Origin: Synechococcus sp.
GTDB lineage: Bacteria > Cyanobacteriota > Cyanobacteriia > PCC-6307 > Cyanobiaceae
Assembly: GCA_047285535.1 (NCBI GenBank)
Contig: JBJBDC010000001.1
Coordinates: 2,304,136 to 2,368,135 of the forward strand
Length of the DNA: 64,000 nt
Direction: 5' to 3'
The position numbers and the translations under genes were made by a program. Position 1 is the stretch's first letter. Each line of letters opens with the position of its first letter. The notes below the pieces were generated by a model. That model saw only the letters and a list, made by a program, of their open reading frames with translations, ran no database searches and was not told the DNA's origin. This document shows positions 11,498 through 63,898 of the stretch, piece by piece.

Positions 11498-11569
11498 GCG
11501 GATGTAGCTCAGTGGTAGAGCATCTCCTTGCCAAGGAGAGGGTCGAGAGTTCGAATCTCTTCATCCGCT
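11498..11569 (+). tRNA. tRNA-Gly (GCC)
   Basis: GCGGATG/CATCCGC acceptor stem, D-arm TAGCTCAGTGGTAGAGC, anticodon arm TCTCC-TTGCCAA-GGAGA, T-loop GTTCGAATC; CCA not encoded. Confidence 0.97.
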
Positions 11570-32801: not shown

Positions 32802-33009
32802 GCGTGAATTCATTGATTTGATGGTTGTGATGAGCCGATCCTCTCTGGTTGTTGCTAAAGCATGACTAATTGTGGATTCAGCGTTTGTGAATTTGTGCCT
32901 GTCTTTGTCTTTGTCTTTGGATGATTGATGTTAGTGGCTCTTGGGATTCGATCTCTTTGCGTGGGTATGCGGTGATTGAGCGGAAGTGGCTTTTGATTTC
33001 GGTCGCATT

Positions 33010-33137
33010 GGATACCAAATTACTTGAAAAGATTTTGCTTAATAGATTAGTTCAAATGATTTTTACTTCTTATAAAGTTTAGTGTGACCTTTTAATTGAC
33101 GGCTTGTTTGGCCATCTCTCGGTGAAATTCAAAAACT
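33010..33137 (+). promoter_or_regulatory. AT-rich putative promoter region of the arginase-urea channel operon
   Basis: Markedly AT-rich stretch containing TTGAAA and TATAAA hexamers just upstream of the ATG at 33138; exact -35/-10 pairing not resolved. Confidence 0.4.
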
Positions 33138-34646
33138 ATGGCTTCGATCCGTTTTGGCGAAGAGCTATCCAATCTGTTTGCGCTGATTGATGCTGACGGA
33201 GATGGGGTGATTACCACAGCCGAGGTGGAGCAGTTGCTGACCTCCATGGATGTAATCGTTGACCCTTCTGAAGCCAGTGCCTTGCGTGAACTCATCGCCA
33301 CAAAGGGGTCTTTGAATCGCGCTGACTTTTTGTTTTGGGCTAATCAGCAACCAGAGTTGGGGACCCATCAACTGCTCAGGGATCTGTTTGCGTTGATTGA
33401 TACCGATAGGAATGGCTGGCTGAGTCAGGAAGAACTTTCTGTGCTGGTTGCGCTTTTGCTTACGCCTGAGGCGCATTTGACCCCCGAGTTTTTGCTGGAG
33501 CGGCTTGATCGTGATGGGAATGGGCAGATCACAACGGATGAATTTCTGGCTTTATTTGAGGAGGAGAGCCTGTTGTCGTTATCTCTGGCTGACCTCAAGC
33601 GCCTGAAGAAAAATTTGGTACAGATCACCAGCACGTCCCGTTTGGCTGGGGTGAGCCTGGTGGAGGTGGATTGTGATCTGGGAGCCGGGATCCCGGGAGC
33701 AGGGGCTGGGATCGAATTGCTGAAGACTGCCATGCAGCGCCAGAAAGATCTGCAGCGGATGAGTGAATCTCTGATTGCTGAGATTCATGCTCAGCAGAGT
33801 CCTATTGCTCGAGCGACCGCCGCTGGCAGTCACAGTCAGACCCCGCATGCTCGCCACATCGAAACCATTGCTGGAGTGATGCGCAAGGCTTCCCAACTTG
33901 TGGCCAGCACCCTCGAGCAGGGACGTTTCCCTCTAGTGCTGGCAGGTGACCACTCCACGGCTGCTTCCACGATCGCTGGCATCCGTCGTGCTTATCCGCA
34001 GCAGCGACTGGGGGTGGTTTGGATCGATGCCCATGCTGATCTCCATTCACCCTTCACGACACCGTCGGGCAACATGCACGGCATGCCTTTGGCAATAGCC
34101 ACTGGGCTCGACAACTTGCCCGAGTCGATCAATGTCCCCGACGCTCGCACCCAAGAGCTTTGGAGGGAATTAAAGCAGTTGCACGGATCAGAATCGGCCG
34201 CGATCGCATTGCGGGATTTGATTTATGTCGCTGTACGCGACACCGAGGCCGCTGAGGATGCAGCGATCATTGCGCATTCAATTCCTGTAATCAGCACCGA
34301 GCAGCTGCGACAAGAAGGGGCCTTGCAGGTTGCCAATCGCTGCCTAGCCCACCTTGCGGAGGTGGATCTTATTTATGTGAGCTTCGATGTGGATGCCCTT
34401 GATTCAACGATCTGTAAGGGAACAGGAACTCCGGTGCCTGGGGGGCTCTGGGCCCATGAAGCTGCTTCACTCTTGCGCACTCTGCTGTCCGACCCACGGA
34501 TTTGTTGTTGGGAAATCTGCGAAATTAATCCTCATCTTGATGAGCTGAACACCCTGGCGGAGGTTTCGCTGGGGATCTTCCGGGCCGGACTGGAGGTGCT
34601 CTCGGAGCGGTTCACTCCCATCACCGTTGCCTCCTATGCCGATTGA
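33138..34646 (+). CDS. Arginase fused to an N-terminal calmodulin-like EF-hand domain
   Basis: EF loops DADGDGVITTAE, DTDRNGWLSQEE, DRDGNGQITTDE; ureohydrolase Mn ligands GDHS, DAHAD, SFDVD; arginase-type SGNMHG; TGTPVPGG; EINP. Confidence 0.92.
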   Translation: MASIRFGEELSNLFALIDADGDGVITTAEVEQLLTSMDVIVDPSEASALRELIATKGSLNRADFLFWANQQPELGTHQLLRDLFALIDTDRNGWLSQEELSVLVALLLTPEAHLTPEFLLERLDRDGNGQITTDEFLALFEEESLLSLSLADLKRLKKNLVQITSTSRLAGVSLVEVDCDLGAGIPGAGAGIELLKTAMQRQKDLQRMSESLIAEIHAQQSPIARATAAGSHSQTPHARHIETIAGVMRKASQLVASTLEQGRFPLVLAGDHSTAASTIAGIRRAYPQQRLGVVWIDAHADLHSPFTTPSGNMHGMPLAIATGLDNLPESINVPDARTQELWRELKQLHGSESAAIALRDLIYVAVRDTEAAEDAAIIAHSIPVISTEQLRQEGALQVANRCLAHLAEVDLIYVSFDVDALDSTICKGTGTPVPGGLWAHEAASLLRTLLSDPRICCWEICEINPHLDELNTLAEVSLGIFRAGLEVLSERFTPITVASYAD

Positions 34647-36240
34647 TGACCATTCCCTGTTTGAGCTTTTACAGGTCTTGTTGCCGCCACCTCCCCCGGT
34701 TCGCAGAGCTGTAAGGGGTGGGGTTTTTAGCAACCGCTTTTCGTTGAGCCCTTGGCTCAGCTGGTTGCGTAGCTTTTCGCAGGTGATCTTCATCAACAAT
34801 CCGCTGAGTGGAGCCCTGCTGCTACTGGCTTTTCTGCTGGGTTCCCCCTGGATGGCTCTTTTGGCTGTGGTTGGCATGGCTGCGGCCAATCTCACCTCAA
34901 GCCTGCTTGGTTTAGCAAGGAATCTGCGTGACCAGGGCATTCATGGTTTCAACGGTGTTCTGGTGGGTTGTGCTGGGGCATCTCTCGTGAATCTCGGAGC
35001 CGTTCAAAGTGTTGGTCTTTTGGTGATCTTGGTGGGAGTCGGGGGCGGTTTCACCACGGTGCTTGTCGAAGTCTGGAGCCGCTTCTTTCATCGCCGCGGA
35101 GATCCACCGGTGCTCACGTTGCCGTTCTGTTTGGTCACCTGGTGCCTTTTGATTCTTGTCCTTCCTTCATCTTCAGATCCGATTGAGTCCCTGCAGTTCT
35201 CTGCAGCAGGAGGTTTGCTGCAGGCGTTGCTGCTCGGCCTGCCTCAAAGCTTTGGTCAAGTGTTTCTCTGCTCAGGCTTGGCGAGCGGATTCCTGGTGCT
35301 CCTGGCTGTCGCCTTGGCCAGTCCTATGGCTGCGGCTCTCGGCGCGGCTGGGGCGATGGTGGGGATGATGACCGCTCTGATTCTTTCCCAAGGCGCTGAT
35401 CATGCGGCCGTGGCTCAGGGGCTCTGGGGCTACAACGGTCTTCTGGTGGCGATCGCTCTTGGCGGGATCTTCCATGCTCCCGGAGTGAAAAGCCTGCTGA
35501 TGGGTCTGGCTGGGGCATGTCTTGCCACTCTGCTTCAATCCCTTCAGGTCTCGCTGATGAGCAGCCTGCCTCCTTTGACCTTCAGCTTCGTGCTGACGAC
35601 CTGGCTGCTGCAGCGCTTTGCCAGCCAGACGTTGCCGGCTCTGATTCCGGTCTCCTTGCATGCGGTGGTTACGCCTGAGGAACATCGCAAGCGGTTTGTT
35701 GTCGCCAGGGAGCTGCTTGGCAGTTTCCGTCGCAACCTGCGGCAGCGGATTAATGGAACAGTGCAAACCCCTGGCCTGGCTCCGTTGGCGCCGGCGCTGC
35801 AGACTCAGGCGCAACGTTTGTTCCAGTTGATCGACCGCGATTGCGATGGCAGCCTCAGCTTGGACGAGTTGCGTGAGGCGTTGCTGCCGTCTCGATCCAG
35901 GGATGAGGCCTCAGAGCAAAGCCTGTCCTTTCTGGATTCTCAGCTGACAGCAACGATGGCTGCGATGGATCTCGATGGAGATGGACGGATCGACTTCGCT
36001 GAATTCAGCCAGCTGATCCAGCGATTGCAGCGGCTCCGTGAGGGGGAGGAACGGCTCCTTCTGTACCTCTTGCCCGTCGATGTCAATGGTGACGATCGCC
36101 TCGATCGGGATGAATTGGCCCGATTGCTGCAAAGCCTTGGTCAAACGCCGCTCACGGCGACCGAACAGTCACTGGTTTTCGCTGATCAGGAGTTGGGTCT
36201 GCGCTGGCGCGATTTTGTGGATCGCCTGCTGTTGATTTGA
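34636..36240 (+). CDS. UT-family urea transporter fused to a C-terminal EF-hand domain
   Basis: UT repeat motifs SFSQVIFINNPLSG / GIHGFNG / LTLPF and SFGQVFL / GLWGYNG / LTFSF, then TPEEH; EF loops DRDCDGSLSLDE, DLDGDGRIDFAE, DVNGDDRLDRDE; overlaps the arginase stop. Confidence 0.9.
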   Translation: MPIDDHSLFELLQVLLPPPPPVRRAVRGGVFSNRFSLSPWLSWLRSFSQVIFINNPLSGALLLLAFLLGSPWMALLAVVGMAAANLTSSLLGLARNLRDQGIHGFNGVLVGCAGASLVNLGAVQSVGLLVILVGVGGGFTTVLVEVWSRFFHRRGDPPVLTLPFCLVTWCLLILVLPSSSDPIESLQFSAAGGLLQALLLGLPQSFGQVFLCSGLASGFLVLLAVALASPMAAALGAAGAMVGMMTALILSQGADHAAVAQGLWGYNGLLVAIALGGIFHAPGVKSLLMGLAGACLATLLQSLQVSLMSSLPPLTFSFVLTTWLLQRFASQTLPALIPVSLHAVVTPEEHRKRFVVARELLGSFRRNLRQRINGTVQTPGLAPLAPALQTQAQRLFQLIDRDCDGSLSLDELREALLPSRSRDEASEQSLSFLDSQLTATMAAMDLDGDGRIDFAEFSQLIQRLQRLREGEERLLLYLLPVDVNGDDRLDRDELARLLQSLGQTPLTATEQSLVFADQELGLRWRDFVDRLLLI

Positions 36241-37577
36241 GCTTGCAAAGCACGATCGCTCTCCGCCTTAGAGAGTTCAAGGTCACAGCCAACCGGTTGG
36301 ATCAAGTGCTCGAGTGCGTCGGCGGTTTGAGACAGGCCCTTCTCTTCTTGGATGAGTTTCTGCAACTGGAGAGCACGCTGTTTGAAGCTTGGGGTAACGG
36401 CGAGGCTCTGCAAGCTTTTTCTGAGCCCATCGGTGGTCACTGTTTTTGCTGTGTAAGTGGCTGGACTGACTCCCAAGCGCTCAAGGGTGCGTCCCCAGGC
36501 CGGCTGATCAGCGAAGAAGGCCACCACGATGCTGGGAATGCCACTGATCAGTGTGCTGGCTGTTGTGCCTGCACCGCCGTGGTGGATGGCACCTTGCAGT
36601 TGAGGGAAGAGCCACTGATGGGGACAGTGTTCGAGTACGAACACTGACTCAGGCAATCGACCTTTTGGCAGCAGATGCCCCCATCCCGGCGAGAGGATCA
36701 GTCGTTGATTGGCTTGGCATGCCGCGGTGACGATGATCTCGGCAAGCTGTTCTGGATCTCTGGGGATCATGCTTCCAAAGCCGGCATAAAACGGGGCTGG
36801 CCCTTCCTGCAGAAAATGCTTGAGGTCCTCAGGGGGCTCGTAAGGGTGATCGGCCTCCTTTGTGGAAAGGCAGAACCCTGTCACTTTTGCTTGAGAAGGC
36901 CAGTCCGCCGGCTTTGGGATTAAGTGTTTGCTGAAGAGATGCAGCACCGTTGGGGATTGCAGAAACGGAGGGGTGTCTTGTCTGGCTGATGCTCCGTTCC
37001 AGGGCAGTTGGGGTAGTCCTTGCTGACGTCGAAACGCTTGAATCACGTTGCTTTCTTGTCGCCATTTGAGAAGGCGAATCGCTTCATAACTGAGTTGGTT
37101 GAGTTTTCCTCGGATGCGGTTGCGAGGTCCGCTCCCATTGGAAGACCCATCTCCTGGCCAGCTCAGGAAGGAGAAGTTTGTTGTGCTGAGCAACGGAATC
37201 GGGCTGACCACCGCGAACCTGCAGCCCTCAGCTTCAGCAAGGTGATATCCCCATAGAGCCAACGGCGGAGTGAGTAGCAGGTCGCAGCCATCGATTGCTT
37301 TGCGGGCAGTTTCGATCCATTCATGAAGCAAGTTGTTATTGATTAAACGAATGGCTTTGCCCTCCATTAACTGGACGCCGTCTTCTGAAGCCATGAGCTC
37401 TCTGAAGTCTCCCGCAAGAGAGGTGAAACGCACCCCCTCGTCTTGCACAGCCTCTTGAAAATTGGCGCTGCCAATGAGATGCACATCATGACCGCGCTTC
37501 TTGAGTTCCTTAAGAAGAACCAAATAGGGCTCGAGATCACCGCGTGAGCCGACGCTGATTAGATGGATGGATGCCAT
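36186..37577 (-). CDS. GT1/GT28-type glycosyltransferase (sterol/glycolipid glucosyltransferase-like)
   Basis: GSRGDLEPY, GFGSM, HHGGAGTT, FFADQPAWG. Confidence 0.9.
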   Translation of the reverse strand: MASIHLISVGSRGDLEPYLVLLKELKKRGHDVHLIGSANFQEAVQDEGVRFTSLAGDFRELMASEDGVQLMEGKAIRLINNNLLHEWIETARKAIDGCDLLLTPPLALWGYHLAEAEGCRFAVVSPIPLLSTTNFSFLSWPGDGSSNGSGPRNRIRGKLNQLSYEAIRLLKWRQESNVIQAFRRQQGLPQLPWNGASARQDTPPFLQSPTVLHLFSKHLIPKPADWPSQAKVTGFCLSTKEADHPYEPPEDLKHFLQEGPAPFYAGFGSMIPRDPEQLAEIIVTAACQANQRLILSPGWGHLLPKGRLPESVFVLEHCPHQWLFPQLQGAIHHGGAGTTASTLISGIPSIVVAFFADQPAWGRTLERLGVSPATYTAKTVTTDGLRKSLQSLAVTPSFKQRALQLQKLIQEEKGLSQTADALEHLIQPVGCDLELSKAESDRALQAQINSRRSTKSRQRRPNS

Positions 37578-37662
37578 AGACGGCGGCTTTTTAATAACAA
37601 CTATTTTCTGCAGATCGCTTGCAGCGCGTGCGCTCTCTCGCTTAGAAATCGATGAGAAAGCA

Positions 37663-38868
37663 ATGTGTTGGTTCCTGCCCCCTCCGATCCGATTTGTGGC
37701 CTGCAATCTGGTTAAGGATCTTCTCGATTGGTGGGAGATTCATGGTCGTAGGGATCCAGCGCAAAAGCCTTGGATGTTTACTCCTGAAGGGAAATGGCCT
37801 CAGCGCTGCGAGCACTTGAATCCCTATCCGATTCACGTGGCCGAGGTGATGCTGCAGCAAACACAGCTGCAGGTGGTGCTGCCGTATTGGCAGCGCTGGA
37901 TGGAGTTCTTCCCAGCTCTTGAGGCGTTAGCTGAGGCGGAGGCGCAGACAGTGTTGCTGTGTTGGCAGGGTCTCGGCTACTACTCCCGGGCTCGCCGTTT
38001 GCATGACTCGGCCCGGCAGCTGCTGAAGCGAATAGGCTCCAATGCCTCTCATGATCCACAGTGTTGGTCAAGGGATCTGGAGGCGTGGCTGGAATTGCCG
38101 GGGATCGGCCGCAGTACGGCTGGCGGCATTCTTTCCTCTTCTTTTAATAGCCCAGTGGCGATCCTGGATGGCAACGTGCGCCGGGTGTTGGCGCGGTTGC
38201 AGGCTCATTCGCTTCCGCCGATGCGGGCGCAATCTCTGTTCTGGAGATGGAGCCAAGCTTTAATCGATGCTGCTCCATCGCGGGCCAGAGATCTCAATCA
38301 GGCTCTGATGGATCTTGGTGCCACGGTTTGTACCCCCCGTTCACCACAATGCTGCTCCTGTCCCTGGCAGGATCATTGCGCTGCGTACGCTGCTGGCGAT
38401 GTGGAGCGCTTCCCCGTGAAAGAGACCCCGAAAGCTGTGCCCTTTCAGGTGATAGGTGTGGGTGTGGTGCTGAATGATGCCGGTGAGGTGTTGATTGATC
38501 AACGCCTGAATGAGGGGCTGCTTGGTGGATTGTGGGAGTTCCCCGGCGGTAAGCAGGAGCCTGGCGAGGCCATCGTTGCCACGATCTCGCGCGAATTGCA
38601 GGAAGAGTTGGGCATTGAGGTGGCTGTGGGAGAGGAGTTGATCAGCCTCGAGCACGCTTACAGCCATAAAAAGCTGCGATTTGTTGTGCATCTCTGCGAG
38701 TGGCGTTCTGGAAACCCACAGCCTCTGGCGAGCCAGCAGGTGCTCTGGGTAAGCCCGAATGAACTGCGGAATTACCCTTTTCCCGCAGCCAATGCACGGA
38801 TCATCGAGGCCTTGGTTGGCAGGTTGGATCCTTCTGGTCAGCCTGAAGCAAGTTGCAATGAGGACTGA
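37663..38868 (+). CDS. mutY: A/G-specific adenine glycosylase MutY with C-terminal Nudix (MutT) domain; start uncertain
   Basis: EVMLQQT, GLGYYSRAR, LPGIG HhH, DGNVRRV, 4Fe-4S C-x6-C-x2-C-x5-C, Nudix box GKQEPGEAIVATISRELQEELGI. Confidence 0.93.
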   Translation: MCWFLPPPIRFVACNLVKDLLDWWEIHGRRDPAQKPWMFTPEGKWPQRCEHLNPYPIHVAEVMLQQTQLQVVLPYWQRWMEFFPALEALAEAEAQTVLLCWQGLGYYSRARRLHDSARQLLKRIGSNASHDPQCWSRDLEAWLELPGIGRSTAGGILSSSFNSPVAILDGNVRRVLARLQAHSLPPMRAQSLFWRWSQALIDAAPSRARDLNQALMDLGATVCTPRSPQCCSCPWQDHCAAYAAGDVERFPVKETPKAVPFQVIGVGVVLNDAGEVLIDQRLNEGLLGGLWEFPGGKQEPGEAIVATISRELQEELGIEVAVGEELISLEHAYSHKKLRFVVHLCEWRSGNPQPLASQQVLWVSPNELRNYPFPAANARIIEALVGRLDPSGQPEASCNED

Positions 38869-41376: not shown

Positions 41377-42729
41377 CTACACAAGTCCCCCCACGATCGG
41401 CCACCAGCAACTATCAATCACTTGCTGCTCTGCTGACTTGGTCTCCGCGTTGCGGATTTCAGCAGCAAGACTATCCAGAAGAGATCCATGCAACAGCGGG
41501 CCCATGGCCTCATGCAGTACAGAATCGCGCTCGAACGCCATCCGGGCTTCAACAAGGCTGGCCGGAAGCTTGGGGATGTTGTGATCGCTCAGCAGAGCGG
41601 GATCACCCGTTTGCTCCGGTGGAAGTGTGCGTTGATCACGCAGGGCGTCAAGCACCTGAGCTTGAAGTGCACCCAACAGCAAGTAGGGATTTGCAGTGGG
41701 ATCGACTGCTTTGATTTCCAGGTGAGCGGCACTCTGATCGATTGCGGTGGGAATTAAGCGAACGGCTGCCTCACGGTTCTCCATGCCCCAGACCTGGAAA
41801 GGGGCGGACCAGCTGCTGGGCACCAGCCGTAGGTAAGACACAGGAGAAGGGCTGGCCAGCGCCACCAGAGCAGGGAGTTGCTCAAGCATCCCGGCAATCA
41901 GGGCTTCTCCTTCAGGACGCAGCCCATAGGGACCTGGCCCGTCTTGGAGCAGGGGGCCTTGAGCATCCCGAAGGCTGAAGTGCAGGTGGCCGCCATTCCC
42001 GATCCAGTCCAGTCGGGGTTTGGCACTAAAGCTGCTGTACCAGCCAAAGCGGCGCGTCACGCGTTGGATCACCAGACGGGCTCGTATCAGCTGATCCGCC
42101 ACCTGGAGTGGGGCTTCGGCTGCGAAGGACAGTTCGAACTGCGAGGGGCCATATTCGGGATGAAACTGGATCCAGTCCACCTCTGCGGTATCGAGTGCCT
42201 CGAGAAGTGCCGAGGCGTAATCGAGGCCCTCGATCAAACGGTCGGCTCCGTAAGGTCCCCCAGAGATCATCGCCTTTGGGGAGCCGTTTCTGTCAGGGCT
42301 TACGACAACCCATTCCAGTTCAAATCCGGCGGTAAGGGACAGTCCAGCTGCATCGAGTTTCTCCTCCATGCGGCGGCAGAAGTGGCGTTGATCTGCGCCG
42401 TAGGGTCCGCTCGTACGAGTCCAGCGTTCGCCCGCGGCCCAGGCCCAGCCCTGATTGGGCTCCAGCATTGCCAGCGATTTAGGGTCTGCCTTGAGGCGCA
42501 GATCGCCATCCGGTCGTGTGAGGCGATGCGTTGGTTCGATGATCCCGTCCGAACGGAAGGCATCGGATATGGGCGAGAAGCCGACTCCGATGTCGACGGC
42601 GAGTTGCCAACGACGCAAAGGCACAACCTTGACGAGCGACTCGCCCGCGTGGTTGTCCCAGGTGATGGCGATCTGACGCACACCTTTGGCGGTCAACGCT
42701 TCGAGGGACTGGTCATACTCCGTGGTCAT
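41377..42729 (-). CDS. Glutamine synthetase-like protein (GlnA3/FluG-type gamma-glutamyl-amine ligase candidate)
   Basis: GFELEW, HPEYGPSQFE, GNGGHLHFSL, SYLRL, NREAAVR, LEIKAVDPTANPYL. Confidence 0.88.
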   Translation of the reverse strand: MTTEYDQSLEALTAKGVRQIAITWDNHAGESLVKVVPLRRWQLAVDIGVGFSPISDAFRSDGIIEPTHRLTRPDGDLRLKADPKSLAMLEPNQGWAWAAGERWTRTSGPYGADQRHFCRRMEEKLDAAGLSLTAGFELEWVVVSPDRNGSPKAMISGGPYGADRLIEGLDYASALLEALDTAEVDWIQFHPEYGPSQFELSFAAEAPLQVADQLIRARLVIQRVTRRFGWYSSFSAKPRLDWIGNGGHLHFSLRDAQGPLLQDGPGPYGLRPEGEALIAGMLEQLPALVALASPSPVSYLRLVPSSWSAPFQVWGMENREAAVRLIPTAIDQSAAHLEIKAVDPTANPYLLLGALQAQVLDALRDQRTLPPEQTGDPALLSDHNIPKLPASLVEARMAFERDSVLHEAMGPLLHGSLLDSLAAEIRNAETKSAEQQVIDSCWWPIVGGLV

Positions 42730-42905
42730 GGCTGCGCATGCAGTGCATTAAGGATGCAGCAGGGTGCCGTTGAGGACTCAGAACGGGCAGGAGCAAGTTC
42801 CATCCATGGCTGGACTTTTACTGATCCAGTCCTTTTGGGCTGTGCTGTGGCTTTTGATGTGGTTGGTGATTGATCAGAATCGTTGCAGCGTGGGGGGTCG
42901 GTTTC

Positions 42906-43091
42906 ATGTCTGAAGTTCCAAGAGGTCTGCTATGGCTGGCCGTGCCCGCTGCGGTTGTTTTGGCCTTAGTGGTGCATGGTCAGGCTGAATCGGCCCTGCC
43001 TTTTTGGGCTGGCATGCCTGTTTGGGTGTTGATGTTCATCGCCCTGCAGGCGGCACTCACCCTTGTTGCTGCTTGGATCGCCCGCCCATGA
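42906..43091 (+). CDS. Small 2-TM symporter accessory protein (DUF3311/DUF997-like)
   Basis: 61 aa, two hydrophobic helices flanking AGMPVW; ATGA overlap with the SSS gene. Confidence 0.6.
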   Translation: MSEVPRGLLWLAVPAAVVLALVVHGQAESALPFWAGMPVWVLMFIALQAALTLVAAWIARP

Positions 43092-44545
43092 GCATCACCT
43101 TGATCTCCGCGCTCCTTGCGCTGGTGGCTTATCTCCTGGCGTTGCTCTGGCTTGGTGCTCAGAGTCTCGGGGGTCAAACCAACAGCGCCGACTCCTATTT
43201 TCTGGCCGATCGGCGACTGCGTGCCGGTGTGCTGTTTTTCACGCTGATCGCCACTAATTTCAGCGCTTTCTTTTTTCTTGGCTTTGCCGGCGCGGGATAT
43301 CGAATCGGGATTGCGTACTACCCAATGATGGCGTTCGGAACAGGATTAGCAGCCTTCAGCTTCGGCAGCCTCGGCTGCCGGGTGCGCAAACTCAGCGCTC
43401 AACATGGCCTGATCACCCCGTCCGAATTGATCGGTCATTTCTTGCCTGGGGAAGGCCTGCGCCTCTTGGTGCTTGCGGTGATGGTGCTGTTCACCCTTCC
43501 CTATTTAGCTCTGCAACCTTTGGGTGCCGGTTACTTGTTGGAGAGCCTTACGGGAGGTGCGGTTCCTTTTGGCGTTGGAGCAACCCTGCTCACGGTCGTG
43601 ATTGTGCTCTATGTCGTAGGCGGCGGCATGCGAGCTGTGGCACGGACCGACGTGCTTCAGGGGGTCTTGATGTTCCTGCTGATGCTGATGGCCTTTGGGG
43701 CTGTAGCCAAAGGTGTCGGTGGCGTCGAGATGGCGAATCGTACGCTGTTCCAACAACGTCCAGACCTCTTCAGTACGGCTGGTCTTGGCGGGTTCTTTAC
43801 GCCGCGAATGATGGCGAGCTATTTGCTGCTCTGGCCTTTGTGTCTGCCGATGTTTCCGCAGATGCTGATGCGTTTCTTTGCCGCCGGGGATGACCGTTCG
43901 CTGAAGCAATCCATGGTGCTGTACCCAGTGGTGGCGGGGGTGTTGTTTATCTGCCCGGTCATGATCGGGATGTGGGGGCATCTGGCCTTCCCCGATCTGG
44001 TGGGTCGCGCCTCAGATCAGATCCTGCCGTTGATGCTTGGACGCTACAGCCCTGAGTGGTTAACGGGAATCGTGATGGTGGGGGCCTTGGCTGCGTTTAT
44101 GTCAACCCTGGACTCGCAGTTGTTGGCGCTGTCTTCGATGCTGACTCGCGACCTCTACACAAGATATTGGCGCCCGCAAGCTTCCTTGCCAGAGCAAGTG
44201 CGTGTCGGGCAGTTCGTGGTGATCGCCCTTGCGGTTGCTGGGCTGGTCATCGCCCTTCGGCCTCCGGATGCGATTCTTTCGCTTGCAACCCATGCGTTCT
44301 CCGGTTTGGCCTTGCTGTTCCCGATGCTGGTGGGGGCGGTCTATGGCCTGCGTTGGTCTGTCCTTGGGGCGATGTTGTCGGTGATCGGCGGCGAAGCCGT
44401 CCTGCTGGGTTTTGCAACGGGTGTGATTCCAGAGGGGTTCCAGGTTGGCTGTCTACCTTTGATTCCGGCACTGGTGGTGGCCTGCTCGATTTTGGTTGTG
44501 GATCAGCTCATTGATCGCTGGTCTTCGTCTTGCTTGCAGGCCTGA
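43088..44545 (+). CDS. Sodium:solute symporter (SSS) family permease
   Basis: YFLADR, ATNFSAFFFLG, GGMRAVARTDVLQG, AAFMSTLDSQLL; many hydrophobic segments. Confidence 0.93.
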   Translation: MSITLISALLALVAYLLALLWLGAQSLGGQTNSADSYFLADRRLRAGVLFFTLIATNFSAFFFLGFAGAGYRIGIAYYPMMAFGTGLAAFSFGSLGCRVRKLSAQHGLITPSELIGHFLPGEGLRLLVLAVMVLFTLPYLALQPLGAGYLLESLTGGAVPFGVGATLLTVVIVLYVVGGGMRAVARTDVLQGVLMFLLMLMAFGAVAKGVGGVEMANRTLFQQRPDLFSTAGLGGFFTPRMMASYLLLWPLCLPMFPQMLMRFFAAGDDRSLKQSMVLYPVVAGVLFICPVMIGMWGHLAFPDLVGRASDQILPLMLGRYSPEWLTGIVMVGALAAFMSTLDSQLLALSSMLTRDLYTRYWRPQASLPEQVRVGQFVVIALAVAGLVIALRPPDAILSLATHAFSGLALLFPMLVGAVYGLRWSVLGAMLSVIGGEAVLLGFATGVIPEGFQVGCLPLIPALVVACSILVVDQLIDRWSSSCLQA

Positions 44546-63703: not shown

Positions 63704-63750
63704 AAGCAGAAGTGCACCAGACCCGGAAACTGTGGCTAGCTTGTCAATAC

Positions 63751-63840
63751 CACTAGGGGTGCCTCGGCTGTCCTTGCGATAGACGGGGCTGAGATCACAC
63801 CCTCTGAACCTGATCCGGGTCATGCCGGCGCAGGGAAGTG
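63751..63840 (+). ncRNA. TPP riboswitch
   Basis: CACTAGGGGTGC..GCTGAGA..ACCC..GAACCTGATC..ATGCCGGCGCAGGGAAGTG upstream of thiC. Confidence 0.95.
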
Positions 63841-63898
63841 AATAGCGTGATCCACGGTTTTCAAGCCGGCTCCTGGCAATTCCGCTGCTGCCAAGGAC

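Follow-up and report, generated by a model that had tools for sequence, protein, structure and literature searches.

Two overlapping EF-hand fusion genes

At positions 33138-36240 of the window, the whole 64,000-nucleotide stretch of Synechococcus sp. DNA that was analysed, lies a two-gene unit encoding an EF-hand-arginase and an EF-hand-urea channel, as the first-pass annotation had observed. Gene 1 (33138-34646, + strand) encodes a 502-residue EF-hand-arginase fusion and gene 2 (34636-36240, + strand) a 534-residue fusion of a UT urea channel with EF-hands, assignments that draw on the open reading frames, Pfam, AlphaFold models and fold matches (from Foldseek for gene 1 and from the PDB for gene 2). 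The two reading frames do overlap behind an AT-rich region, as had been described: gene 2 begins at an ATG at 34636 and the arginase stop codon occupies 34644-34646, an overlap of 11 nt, and this start is credible because close homologues align from residue 1. The leader and probable promoter region (33000-33137, + strand), the 138 nt ahead of the first ATG, has a GC content of 33% against 56% across the window. No match to the sigma-70 promoter consensus was found upstream of gene 1 and no riboswitch or RNA family between 31500 and 38000, and terminator-like sites were at chance level. A convergent family-1/28 glycosyltransferase gene (36186-37706, − strand) belongs to the same variable insert and is not a conserved partner, and a scan of neighbouring ORFs (86 and 58) revealed no further conserved partner within the variable flanks. 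The fusions are not chance products, because each has more than 100 full-length homologues and the gene order is conserved.

In the EF-hand-arginase, Pfam places EF-hands at residues 9-140 and the Arginase family PF00491 at 172-471 (E 2e-49; 168.9 bits against a cut-off of 22). The ureohydrolase (arginase) domain (33651-34550, + strand) carries the metal ligands H272, D297, H299, D301, D417 and D419 together with H314 and E462; the six binuclear-metal ligands and the catalytic His and Glu, which align with those of the Thermus arginase, are invariant in 110/110 EF-arginase homologues. Loop A is of arginase length and keeps S310 and N312 for the carboxylate binders Ser137 and Asn139, with H303 at the position of a third such binder, Asn130, a His shared by all 110 homologues and all 55 EF-less relatives; in loop B the Asp183 position is Glu, and Glu186 is kept. 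The description of this protein as an intact arginase is thus upheld for every metal and catalytic residue, and is weakened by that His and by a TIGR01229 score of 191.9, below the cut-off of 227.6, although this is still the best family by far. Against the agmatinase family TIGR01230 the protein scores well below the cut-off (61.7 against 174.3), and a separate gene of the same genome encodes an agmatinase that exceeds this cut-off (251.9). The AlphaFold model (pLDDT 80.6) has arginases as its top Foldseek matches.

The channel likewise has the composition first read from it, with PF03253 at residues 43-325 (214.8 bits against a cut-off of 25, E 2e-63) and EF-hands from residue 390. Its UT (SLC14-type) domain (34762-35610, + strand) has conserved pore motifs in both repeats and is followed by an invariant linker, P347-E-E-H350; the score against the Yut family TIGR03441 is 144, with a cut-off of 274.6. 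The AlphaFold model (pLDDT 80.9) matches UT channels and calmodulin or CDPK domains in the PDB, with TM-scores of 0.76-0.84 of the target for UT structures.

Taking D-x-[DNS]-x-[DNSE]-x6-[ED], in paired helix-loop-helix motifs, as the canonical EF loop, each protein has three canonical loops and one degenerate loop of four. In the arginase EF-hand domain (33189-33542, + strand) the canonical loops span residues 18-29, 88-99 and 124-135 and conform to the pattern in 109, 108 and 110, respectively, of the 110 homologues, while the degenerate second loop is canonical in 0/110. In the channel domain (35833-36114, + strand) they span residues 400-411, 445-456 and 482-493 and are canonical in 111/111 for each, and the degenerate fourth loop in 0/108. 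At positions 1, 3, 5 and 12 of the loops the Ca2+ ligands are retained in 108-111 of 110-111 homologues, whereas the residues next to them are variable. This strong conservation agrees with the earlier proposal that the loops may bind Ca2+, and the layout makes both domains candidate calmodulin-like Ca2+ sensors. A PF13499 scan of the genome matched only these two proteins; that they are the only EF proteins of the genome was rejected, as a motif scan gave two more ORFs with at least two loops.

Linkage, distribution and an upstream NtcA-like box

Among 301 genomes of the family, 19 carry the EF-arginase, all with the channel gene adjacent, and the two genes co-diverge (rho 0.93 across 40 loci). 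In the same genomes 14 of the 33 channel carriers have no arginase. In a separate survey of homologous loci, no channel adjoins the EF-arginase at 8 of the 21 that could be assessed, and a urea channel is adjacent in 0/55 EF-less arginase relatives. Many loci have a disrupted operon or have lost it, so that it is dispensable, and the occurrence of the channel alone in 14 genomes means that coupling to the arginase is not obligatory. Channel-only loci retain the canonical Ca2+ loops; Burkholderiales channels have lost two of the three, and one cyanobacterial lineage keeps the pair with an enzyme that has lost its EF domain. Conserved linkage of the fusions, on which the original proposal depended, is therefore seen from the side of the arginase in this family but not from that of the channel, and independent occurrence, named beforehand as evidence against it, was found in part. 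Because the fusions also occur independently, the proposal that urea production and flux are switched together does not stand as worded, and joint switching can be no more than one way of using two parts that are each regulated on their own. No prior description of such a system was found in the literature searched, in keeping with what had been supposed. A link to nitric oxide synthase was rejected, the 1468-aa ORF beside one EF-arginase (locus L008) being an NRPS.

UT-EF fusions also occur in an ESM Atlas cluster of 53 members, 85% of them with an EF-hand, which is mostly diatom, the taxonomy of its long UT-EF proteins resting on one Atlas query. In a quick unrooted UT tree the bacterial fusions form their own clade, separate from the eukaryote-like ones, a separation that may or may not mean separate origins. 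A second cyanobacterial UT-EF paralogue sits with nucleotide-catabolism genes, one of which, a nucleotidase, is itself EF-fused.

A putative NtcA-like palindromic box, GTC-N8-TAC, lies at 33002-33015, 123 nt before the first ATG, with one mismatch to GTA-N8-TAC, the NtcA consensus given in PMC5714215; no exact NtcA consensus is present in the window. Of 27 picocyanobacterial loci, 21 have the same motif at a distance of 84-168 nt before residue 9 of the EF-arginase, against 1.8 expected, the interval and pattern having been fixed post hoc after a first look over 400 nt in 30 loci (18 against 13.1 expected). By sequence group it is present in 13 of 19, with a background of 126 of 1649 genome windows; it is absent from 6 of the 27 loci and from all 28 channel-only loci, and in the first look no more than 3 of the 9 filamentous loci had it. 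The GTA half is intact in 18 of the 21 boxes, which the same source gives as a trait of induced promoters, and repressor sites are there described as deviating from the consensus and varying in position. No canonical -10 box 22-23 nt past the site was evident by eye in the upstream regions of the loci. The conserved box, new here as a feature of the EF-arginase operon, is a probable nitrogen-control site as judged from sequence, and its recurrence argues for nitrogen control instead of the osmotic role once suggested.

Nitrogen metabolism of the host and a proposed function

Urease is encoded in 39/42 and UrtA in 38/42 carrier genomes, and both are present in this one, consistent with the Urt-type urea uptake that had been taken as normal for picocyanobacteria. 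The arginine dihydrolase ArgZ/AgrE achieves the same net reaction as arginase plus urease, from arginine to ornithine, two NH3 and CO2. In this genome, 99.99% complete, no match was found to the ADI family, TIGR00300, cyanophycin synthetase, ornithine cyclodeaminase or PutA; no ornithine-to-glutamate route was found in it, so that only two of the four nitrogens of arginine are clearly recovered. TIGR00300 and cphA were found in 0/40 family genomes tested, and since the TIGR00300 marker is missing with or without the arginase, the idea that ArgZ explains arginase loss was rejected; in the filamentous carriers, ArgZ-type and cphA genes accompany the operon (9/9). A review describes the Ca2+ transient of nitrogen starvation in S. 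elongatus as NtcA-dependent (PMC4284465), and PMC10117731 reports that free cytoplasmic Ca2+ is kept low and that CSE and CcbP link Ca2+ to nitrogen status. In diatoms arginase and urea genes peak under nitrogen limitation (PMC6779911). Urea is bound with a Kd of 0.2-2.3 mM by UT proteins against 141 nM by UrtA (PMC10392092).

The best explanation, to which we give a probability of about 40%, is a mobile two-gene operon that recycles and scavenges the nitrogen of arginine and urea under control at two levels. NtcA would bind the upstream box, as its conservation suggests, and would presumably turn the operon on when nitrogen is short. The enzyme, of the Mn-type arginase family, would convert arginine to ornithine and urea, and the urease of the cell would release ammonium from the urea, the net reaction being that of ArgZ/AgrE, which these picocyanobacteria lack. 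The UT protein would be a passive low-affinity urea pore; if always open it would drain urea coming from arginase or from UrtABCDE and hence needs a gate, a role that may fall to the cytoplasmic EF-hand domain of the channel. The transient rise in cytoplasmic Ca2+ on nitrogen step-down, as described for a unicellular cyanobacterium, would be read directly by the three EF loops of each protein, tuning the arginase and leaving the pore either shut, with urea kept for urease, or open, with a pulse of urea taken up. As each protein would have its own sensor, either could work alone. We count in favour of recycling the conserved loops, the invariant catalytic residues, the NtcA-like box, urease and UrtA, the missing ArgZ-type and cyanophycin genes, the separate agmatinase, the Ca2+ transient, the Kd data and the diatom expression data, and against it the six loci without a box, the scarcity of the box in filamentous loci, its post hoc interval, the want of an evident -10 box, the missing ornithine route, the losses of loops and EF domains, the broken operons and the ArgZ-type and cphA genes of filamentous carriers; a pore of millimolar affinity would moreover contribute little to uptake at the urea concentrations of sea water.

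The main rival, and the principal reading of the first-pass annotation, is a nitrogen overflow valve, in which NtcA would repress the operon, leaving it active when nitrogen is in excess or has just been shifted up, Ca2+ would turn on the arginase and open the pore together, and surplus nitrogen would be excreted as urea while ornithine is recycled to arginine. A low-affinity pore does matter mostly when internal urea is high, these cells have no cyanophycin store, the lack of an ornithine degradation route in our searches would leave ornithine to be recycled, the boxes vary in position (-84 to -168) and deviate much as repressor sites do in PMC5714215, and a single operon and a single type of sensor serve both enzyme and pore. 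We nevertheless think it unlikely, as the carriers keep urease and UrtA, which would recapture the urea, the reported Ca2+ signal is one of low nitrogen, and loci from which the arginase has been deleted still have the channel, its loops intact.

Quite unlikely, in our estimate, is that the EF domains serve for structure or buffering, constitutively loaded with Ca2+ or Mg2+ for folding or oligomer assembly, in an ordinary arginase and channel operon with no switching. The EF loss from the arginase of one lineage, the loop decay in Burkholderiales and the fact that EF-less arginases and UTs work elsewhere would fit this, but the paired calmodulin-like four-EF layout with a canonical Glu12 in essentially all homologues, the low free cytoplasmic Ca2+ and the recurrence of EF domains on diatom-like UTs and on a neighbouring nucleotidase argue against it.

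That the enzyme uses a guanidino compound other than arginine (agmatine, homoarginine, a guanidino acid or a canavanine-like one), with the channel handling the resulting urea, we regard as improbable. The His and Glu at the Asn130 and Asp183 positions and the sub-threshold TIGR01229 score raise this reading, Asn130 being a specificity determinant in human arginase (PMC9224512), and two Synechocystis proteins annotated as arginases proved not to be arginases (PMC2242806). However, loop A keeps the arginase length with the Ser137 and Asn139 equivalents, and arginase activity survived even the N130Y change when the length of the loop was kept (PMC9224512). The best sequence and fold matches, furthermore, are arginases, a sister-clade protein (L026) passes TIGR01229, and the genome already has an agmatinase.

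Least probable, and to us very doubtful, is that the EF domains are docking modules fixing the arginase at the channel mouth for urea to be channelled straight out: both families form three-fold oligomers, and the translational overlap, the co-divergence and the complementary degenerate loops would suit it, but the channel keeps its loops intact in loci that lack the arginase, loss of the enzyme's EF domain has not broken up the pair, and no fused arginase-UT protein was found among the best 150 profile matches or, as weak evidence, in a search at 880-2510 aa, whose one match was unrelated, a complex prediction for the two EF domains (score 0.00) speaking neither for nor against.

Comparison with known systems

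More broadly, UT-EF proteins may be a hitherto undescribed class of directly Ca2+-gated urea channels common to cyanobacteria and diatoms which, as one set of nitrogen-catabolic proteins with the EF-arginase and, by way of the second paralogue, the EF-nucleotidase, would read the nitrogen-status Ca2+ transient under NtcA as its first enzyme and channel effectors, a proposition that we place only a little short of an even chance. With EF-hands of their own, the enzyme and the channel are purifiable candidates for direct effectors that simple assays can follow, by ornithine and urea production or by urea flux, and through them the role of the Ca2+ signal becomes testable. Gating by a ligand would, if true, be a novelty among UTs, as no solved member of the family has a sensor domain, and diatom-like proteins of the same layout take it to a second major group of phytoplankton. 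A genuine arginase in picocyanobacteria would likewise fill a gap, given the two misannotated Synechocystis proteins, and should urea flow outward, some strains would supply it to plankton communities in a regulated way.

The EF-arginase shares with the RocF arginases of Bacillus and Thermus (PDB 6nbk, 1cev, 2eiv; TIGR01229) the fold, the binuclear-metal ligands, the catalytic His and Glu and the long loop A, and differs in its N-terminal four-EF domain, the residues at the Asn130 and Asp183 positions and its urea channel partner; its clade is sister to uncharacterised Bacteroidota arginases. In contrast to ArgZ/AgrE of the ornithine-ammonia cycle, the arginase has an unrelated fold and frees a urea intermediate able to cross the membrane. 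The channel has the ten-helix two-repeat fold and pore motifs of the UT/SLC14 family (Desulfovibrio dvUT 3k3f, mammalian UT-A and UT-B, Yut TIGR03441), whereas the linker, a long helix and the C-terminal four-EF domain are absent from the solved UTs that it matched. The diatom and protist cluster also combines a UT with a linker of the same type and C-terminal EF-hands, but is eukaryotic, and the UT tree does not unite it with the bacterial fusions in a single clade. In P. tricornutum the mitochondrial UT3, possibly of this type although 'EF-hand' does not appear in the main text of the paper, is found in mitochondria together with urease and arginase (PMC6779911). CSE and CcbP are, according to PMC10117731, small stand-alone Ca2+ binders of filamentous strains, whereas here the putative sensor is fused to the enzyme and the channel themselves.

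Two overlapping EF-hand fusion genes

The 3.03-Mb genome, a single contig estimated as 99.99% complete and picocyanobacterial to judge from how its homologues are named, carries on the forward strand a gene (33138-34646) for a 502-residue protein with EF-hands at residues 9-140 and an arginase domain (PF00491) at 172-471, here termed EF-arginase. It overlaps by 11 nt a second forward-strand gene (34636-36240) whose 534-residue product, UT-EF, has a UT urea channel domain (PF03253) at residues 43-325 and EF-hands from residue 390. The domain matches and the overlap bear out the first-pass annotation, as does the GC content of 33% over the 138 nt upstream of the first gene, where an AT-rich stretch had been noted. 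Structure models of the two products, built on alignments of 31 and 27 rows, reached pLDDT values of 80.6 and 80.9, respectively, and matched solved arginases and solved UT channels first and calmodulin and CDPK domains next. UT-EF retains the UT pore motifs in both repeats, and an invariant linker precedes its EF domain; the C-termini of UT proteins face the cytoplasm.

The same annotation knew of no prior description, and within the full-text literature searched by title or abstract start, with subscription journals outside coverage, none of either fusion was found. Passages of two diatom preprints, PMC2242806 and PMC11844795 describe neither, and a review of bacterial Ca2+ proteins contains neither the fusions nor the words 'arginase' and 'urea'. 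The automatic JGI name 'urea transporter/Ca2+-binding EF-hand superfamily protein' exists already. Both fusions are real, conserved and made from known parts, and apparently undescribed.

Linkage and loss of the pair

EF-arginase occurs in 24 of the best 80 GTDB loci, with a UT gene immediately downstream in 13, absent in 8 and the contig too short in 3; in a 25th locus (L022) an EF-less arginase precedes UT-EF. None of 55 loci with EF-less arginases, mostly from Bacteroidota, has a UT gene alongside. Among 301 family genomes, 19 gave an arginase match and 33 a channel match. The proposed co-occurrence as neighbours holds from the side of the enzyme, in 19/19 genomes (a transposase interrupts the pair in one of them and a contig end in another), but not from that of the channel, which stands without a scoring arginase in 14 (arginase remnants in 2). 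Seven of 401 phylum genomes hold a full clade arginase, all with UT-EF, adjacent in 6; the channel matched in 16, including 2 fragments. Arginase lies upstream in 30/55 metagenome loci retrieved with the channel. Across 40 loci, themselves related and hence not independent, pairwise identities for one gene follow those for the other (correlation 0.93).

The synteny of Fur-[channel]-Crp (L139) against Fur-[arginase]-[channel]-Crp (L004) indicates loss; Fur also lies upstream of the channel in L096, L098 and L101. The two-gene unit is accessory in this genus, since the flanking RND-adaptor and mutY genes lie ~200 nt apart in four genomes (G277, G037, G135, G109), with the channel alone at that site in G697 and the pair inverted in G672. 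Quick, unrooted trees with SH-aLRT support only gave a single bacterial UT-EF clade (33/105 rows) and a single EF-arginase clade (33/47 rows), the latter having Bacteroidota enzymes as its sister group; in each clade Burkholderiales and picocyanobacteria are neighbours, and filamentous cyanobacteria branch outside them. Contigs L006, L021 and L022 bear the names Bifidobacterium, Bordetella and Sulfopaludibacter, yet in the trees they fall with sequences from Synechococcus/Cyanobium or from environmental Burkholderiales; they are probably mis-binned or mislabelled MAGs and were therefore left out of the count of extra phyla.

Nitrogen context and proposed Ca2+ control

No exact NtcA consensus (GTA-N8-TAC) lies within the 64-kb window; a box with one mismatch (GTC-N8-TAC) lies at 33002-33015. 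An initial 400-nt scan of 30 loci found a site in 18 versus 13.1 by shuffling, the picocyanobacterial sites being clustered in position, most with like beginnings. In an interval narrowed post hoc to -200 to -60 from EF-arginase residue 9, the motif occurs in 21/27 picocyanobacterial regions (13/19 sequence groups) versus 1.8 expected from shuffles, in 126/1649 equivalent windows of the genome background, and in 0/28 channel-only loci, many closely related. NtcA activates from a strict GTA box near -41.5 and represses from variable sites (PMC5714215, in excerpt).

The reading that we favour, at roughly 40%, is that nitrogen shortage would induce the operon through NtcA and that arginase with urease would return arginine nitrogen as ammonium; the passive UT pore would need a gate, as it would otherwise leak futilely, and a Ca2+ transient on nitrogen starvation may set both enzyme and gate. 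Such an NtcA-dependent transient is described for S. elongatus (passages of review PMC4284465 and of PMC10117731, section 12), and UT proteins bind urea with a Kd of 0.2-2.3 mM versus 141 nM for UrtA (PMC10392092, in part). Overflow export is a less probable alternative. Carrier genomes encode urease in 39/42 cases and UrtA in 38/42. This genome gave no above-cut-off match to ADI, TIGR00300 (which we take to mark ArgZ/AgrE), cyanophycin synthetase, ornithine cyclodeaminase or PutA; TIGR00300 and cphA occur in 0/40 family genomes and 9/9 larger cyanobacteria.

That the EF domains are non-regulatory is unlikely. Loops 1, 3 and 4 of EF-arginase keep the canonical Ca2+ pattern in 109/110, 108/110 and 110/110 proteins (at least 470 residues, out of 121 collected), and loops 1, 2 and 3 of UT-EF in 111/111 each (at least 500 residues, out of 120), both sets being closest matches, chiefly picocyanobacterial; the pattern occurs in 0/110 for EF-arginase loop 2 and 0/108 for UT-EF loop 4. 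One lineage has lost the enzyme's EF domain and Burkholderiales channels keep one Ca2+ loop, so coupling of the two fusions is not obligate.

Action of the enzyme on another substrate is rather improbable. The first-pass call of an intact arginase stands for the metal ligands and catalytic residues, all invariant in the 110 proteins, but the product scores 191.9 on TIGR01229, below the cut-off of 227.6, and His occupies the Asn130 position in 110/110 EF-arginases and 55/55 EF-less relatives; Glu occupies that of Asp183. In human arginase Asn130 affects specificity and loop length is decisive (PMC9224512, in excerpt). Loop A here has arginase length, with Ser137 and Asn139 equivalents, the agmatinase model gives 61.7, and a separate agmatinase is encoded in the genome, so that arginine is the likely substrate as judged from residues and profiles. 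That the EF domains are docking modules is very improbable. Most of the readings considered imply Ca2+ regulation of one or both proteins.

About 5 kb downstream (41377-44545) lie a GlnA-like gene, nearest to gamma-glutamylputrescine synthetase but below cut-off, and an SSF symporter gene, possibly for amine uptake. At L123 and L184 a glutamine synthetase gene precedes the unit. The genome has two more ORFs (contig C1, 338552-339067 and 1223997-1225181) with three and two EF-type loops, respectively, and the window holds a TPP riboswitch (63745-63853) and a tRNA (11498-11569).

Other settings of the EF-hand channel

A UT-EF profile search over 1.84 billion representatives returned long proteins, of which 59 were scanned: 29 combine UT with EF-hands at the C-terminus, 1 has its EF domain at the N-terminus, and 17 bear ankyrin repeats. 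The C-terminal ankyrin fusions (P0279, P0287, P0294 and 14 more) form a separate group in the tree.

Larger cyanobacteria have a second UT-EF paralogue that adjoins 5'-nucleotidase and nucleoside-hydrolase genes (L173, L174, L177, L180, L183), with the nucleotidase alongside in L175 too. At L177 the 5'-nucleotidase-like protein (L177:4151-5881, reverse strand) has three canonical C-terminal EF loops and its gene is divergent from UT-EF (L177:6143-7789), with nucleoside hydrolase alongside; by its sequence this is a second EF-enzyme/EF-channel pairing. Purine breakdown is the other classic source of urea, and the EF channel is thus found in two catabolic contexts. Upstream of this paralogue, L173:3477-4532 and L183:3948-5024 encode a 352-359-residue protein with no Pfam match and, by eye, a signal peptide, a beta-rich domain and four C-terminal helices, an arrangement that may resemble a pentameric ligand-gated channel. 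In Microcoleus/Crinalium-type loci (L180:1-20000, L012, L013) the pair sits within an island of EamA transporters, MscS, bestrophin, a Castor/Slo-like RCK channel, a conserved 465-residue protein, a histidine-phosphatase-membrane-EF fusion (L012:27-2087), a globin-pentapeptide protein and a stop-broken second UT-EF copy; for those strains this gene content is suggestive of a setting of ion/osmotic balance or rehydration.

One UT-EF queried in the Atlas fell in a 53-member cluster, 63% eukaryote with diatoms commonest, and with an EF-hand in 85%. The main text of PMC6779911 names EF-hands nowhere and places in diatoms a metazoan-like mitochondrial UT3, induced by nitrogen limitation, alongside urease and arginase.
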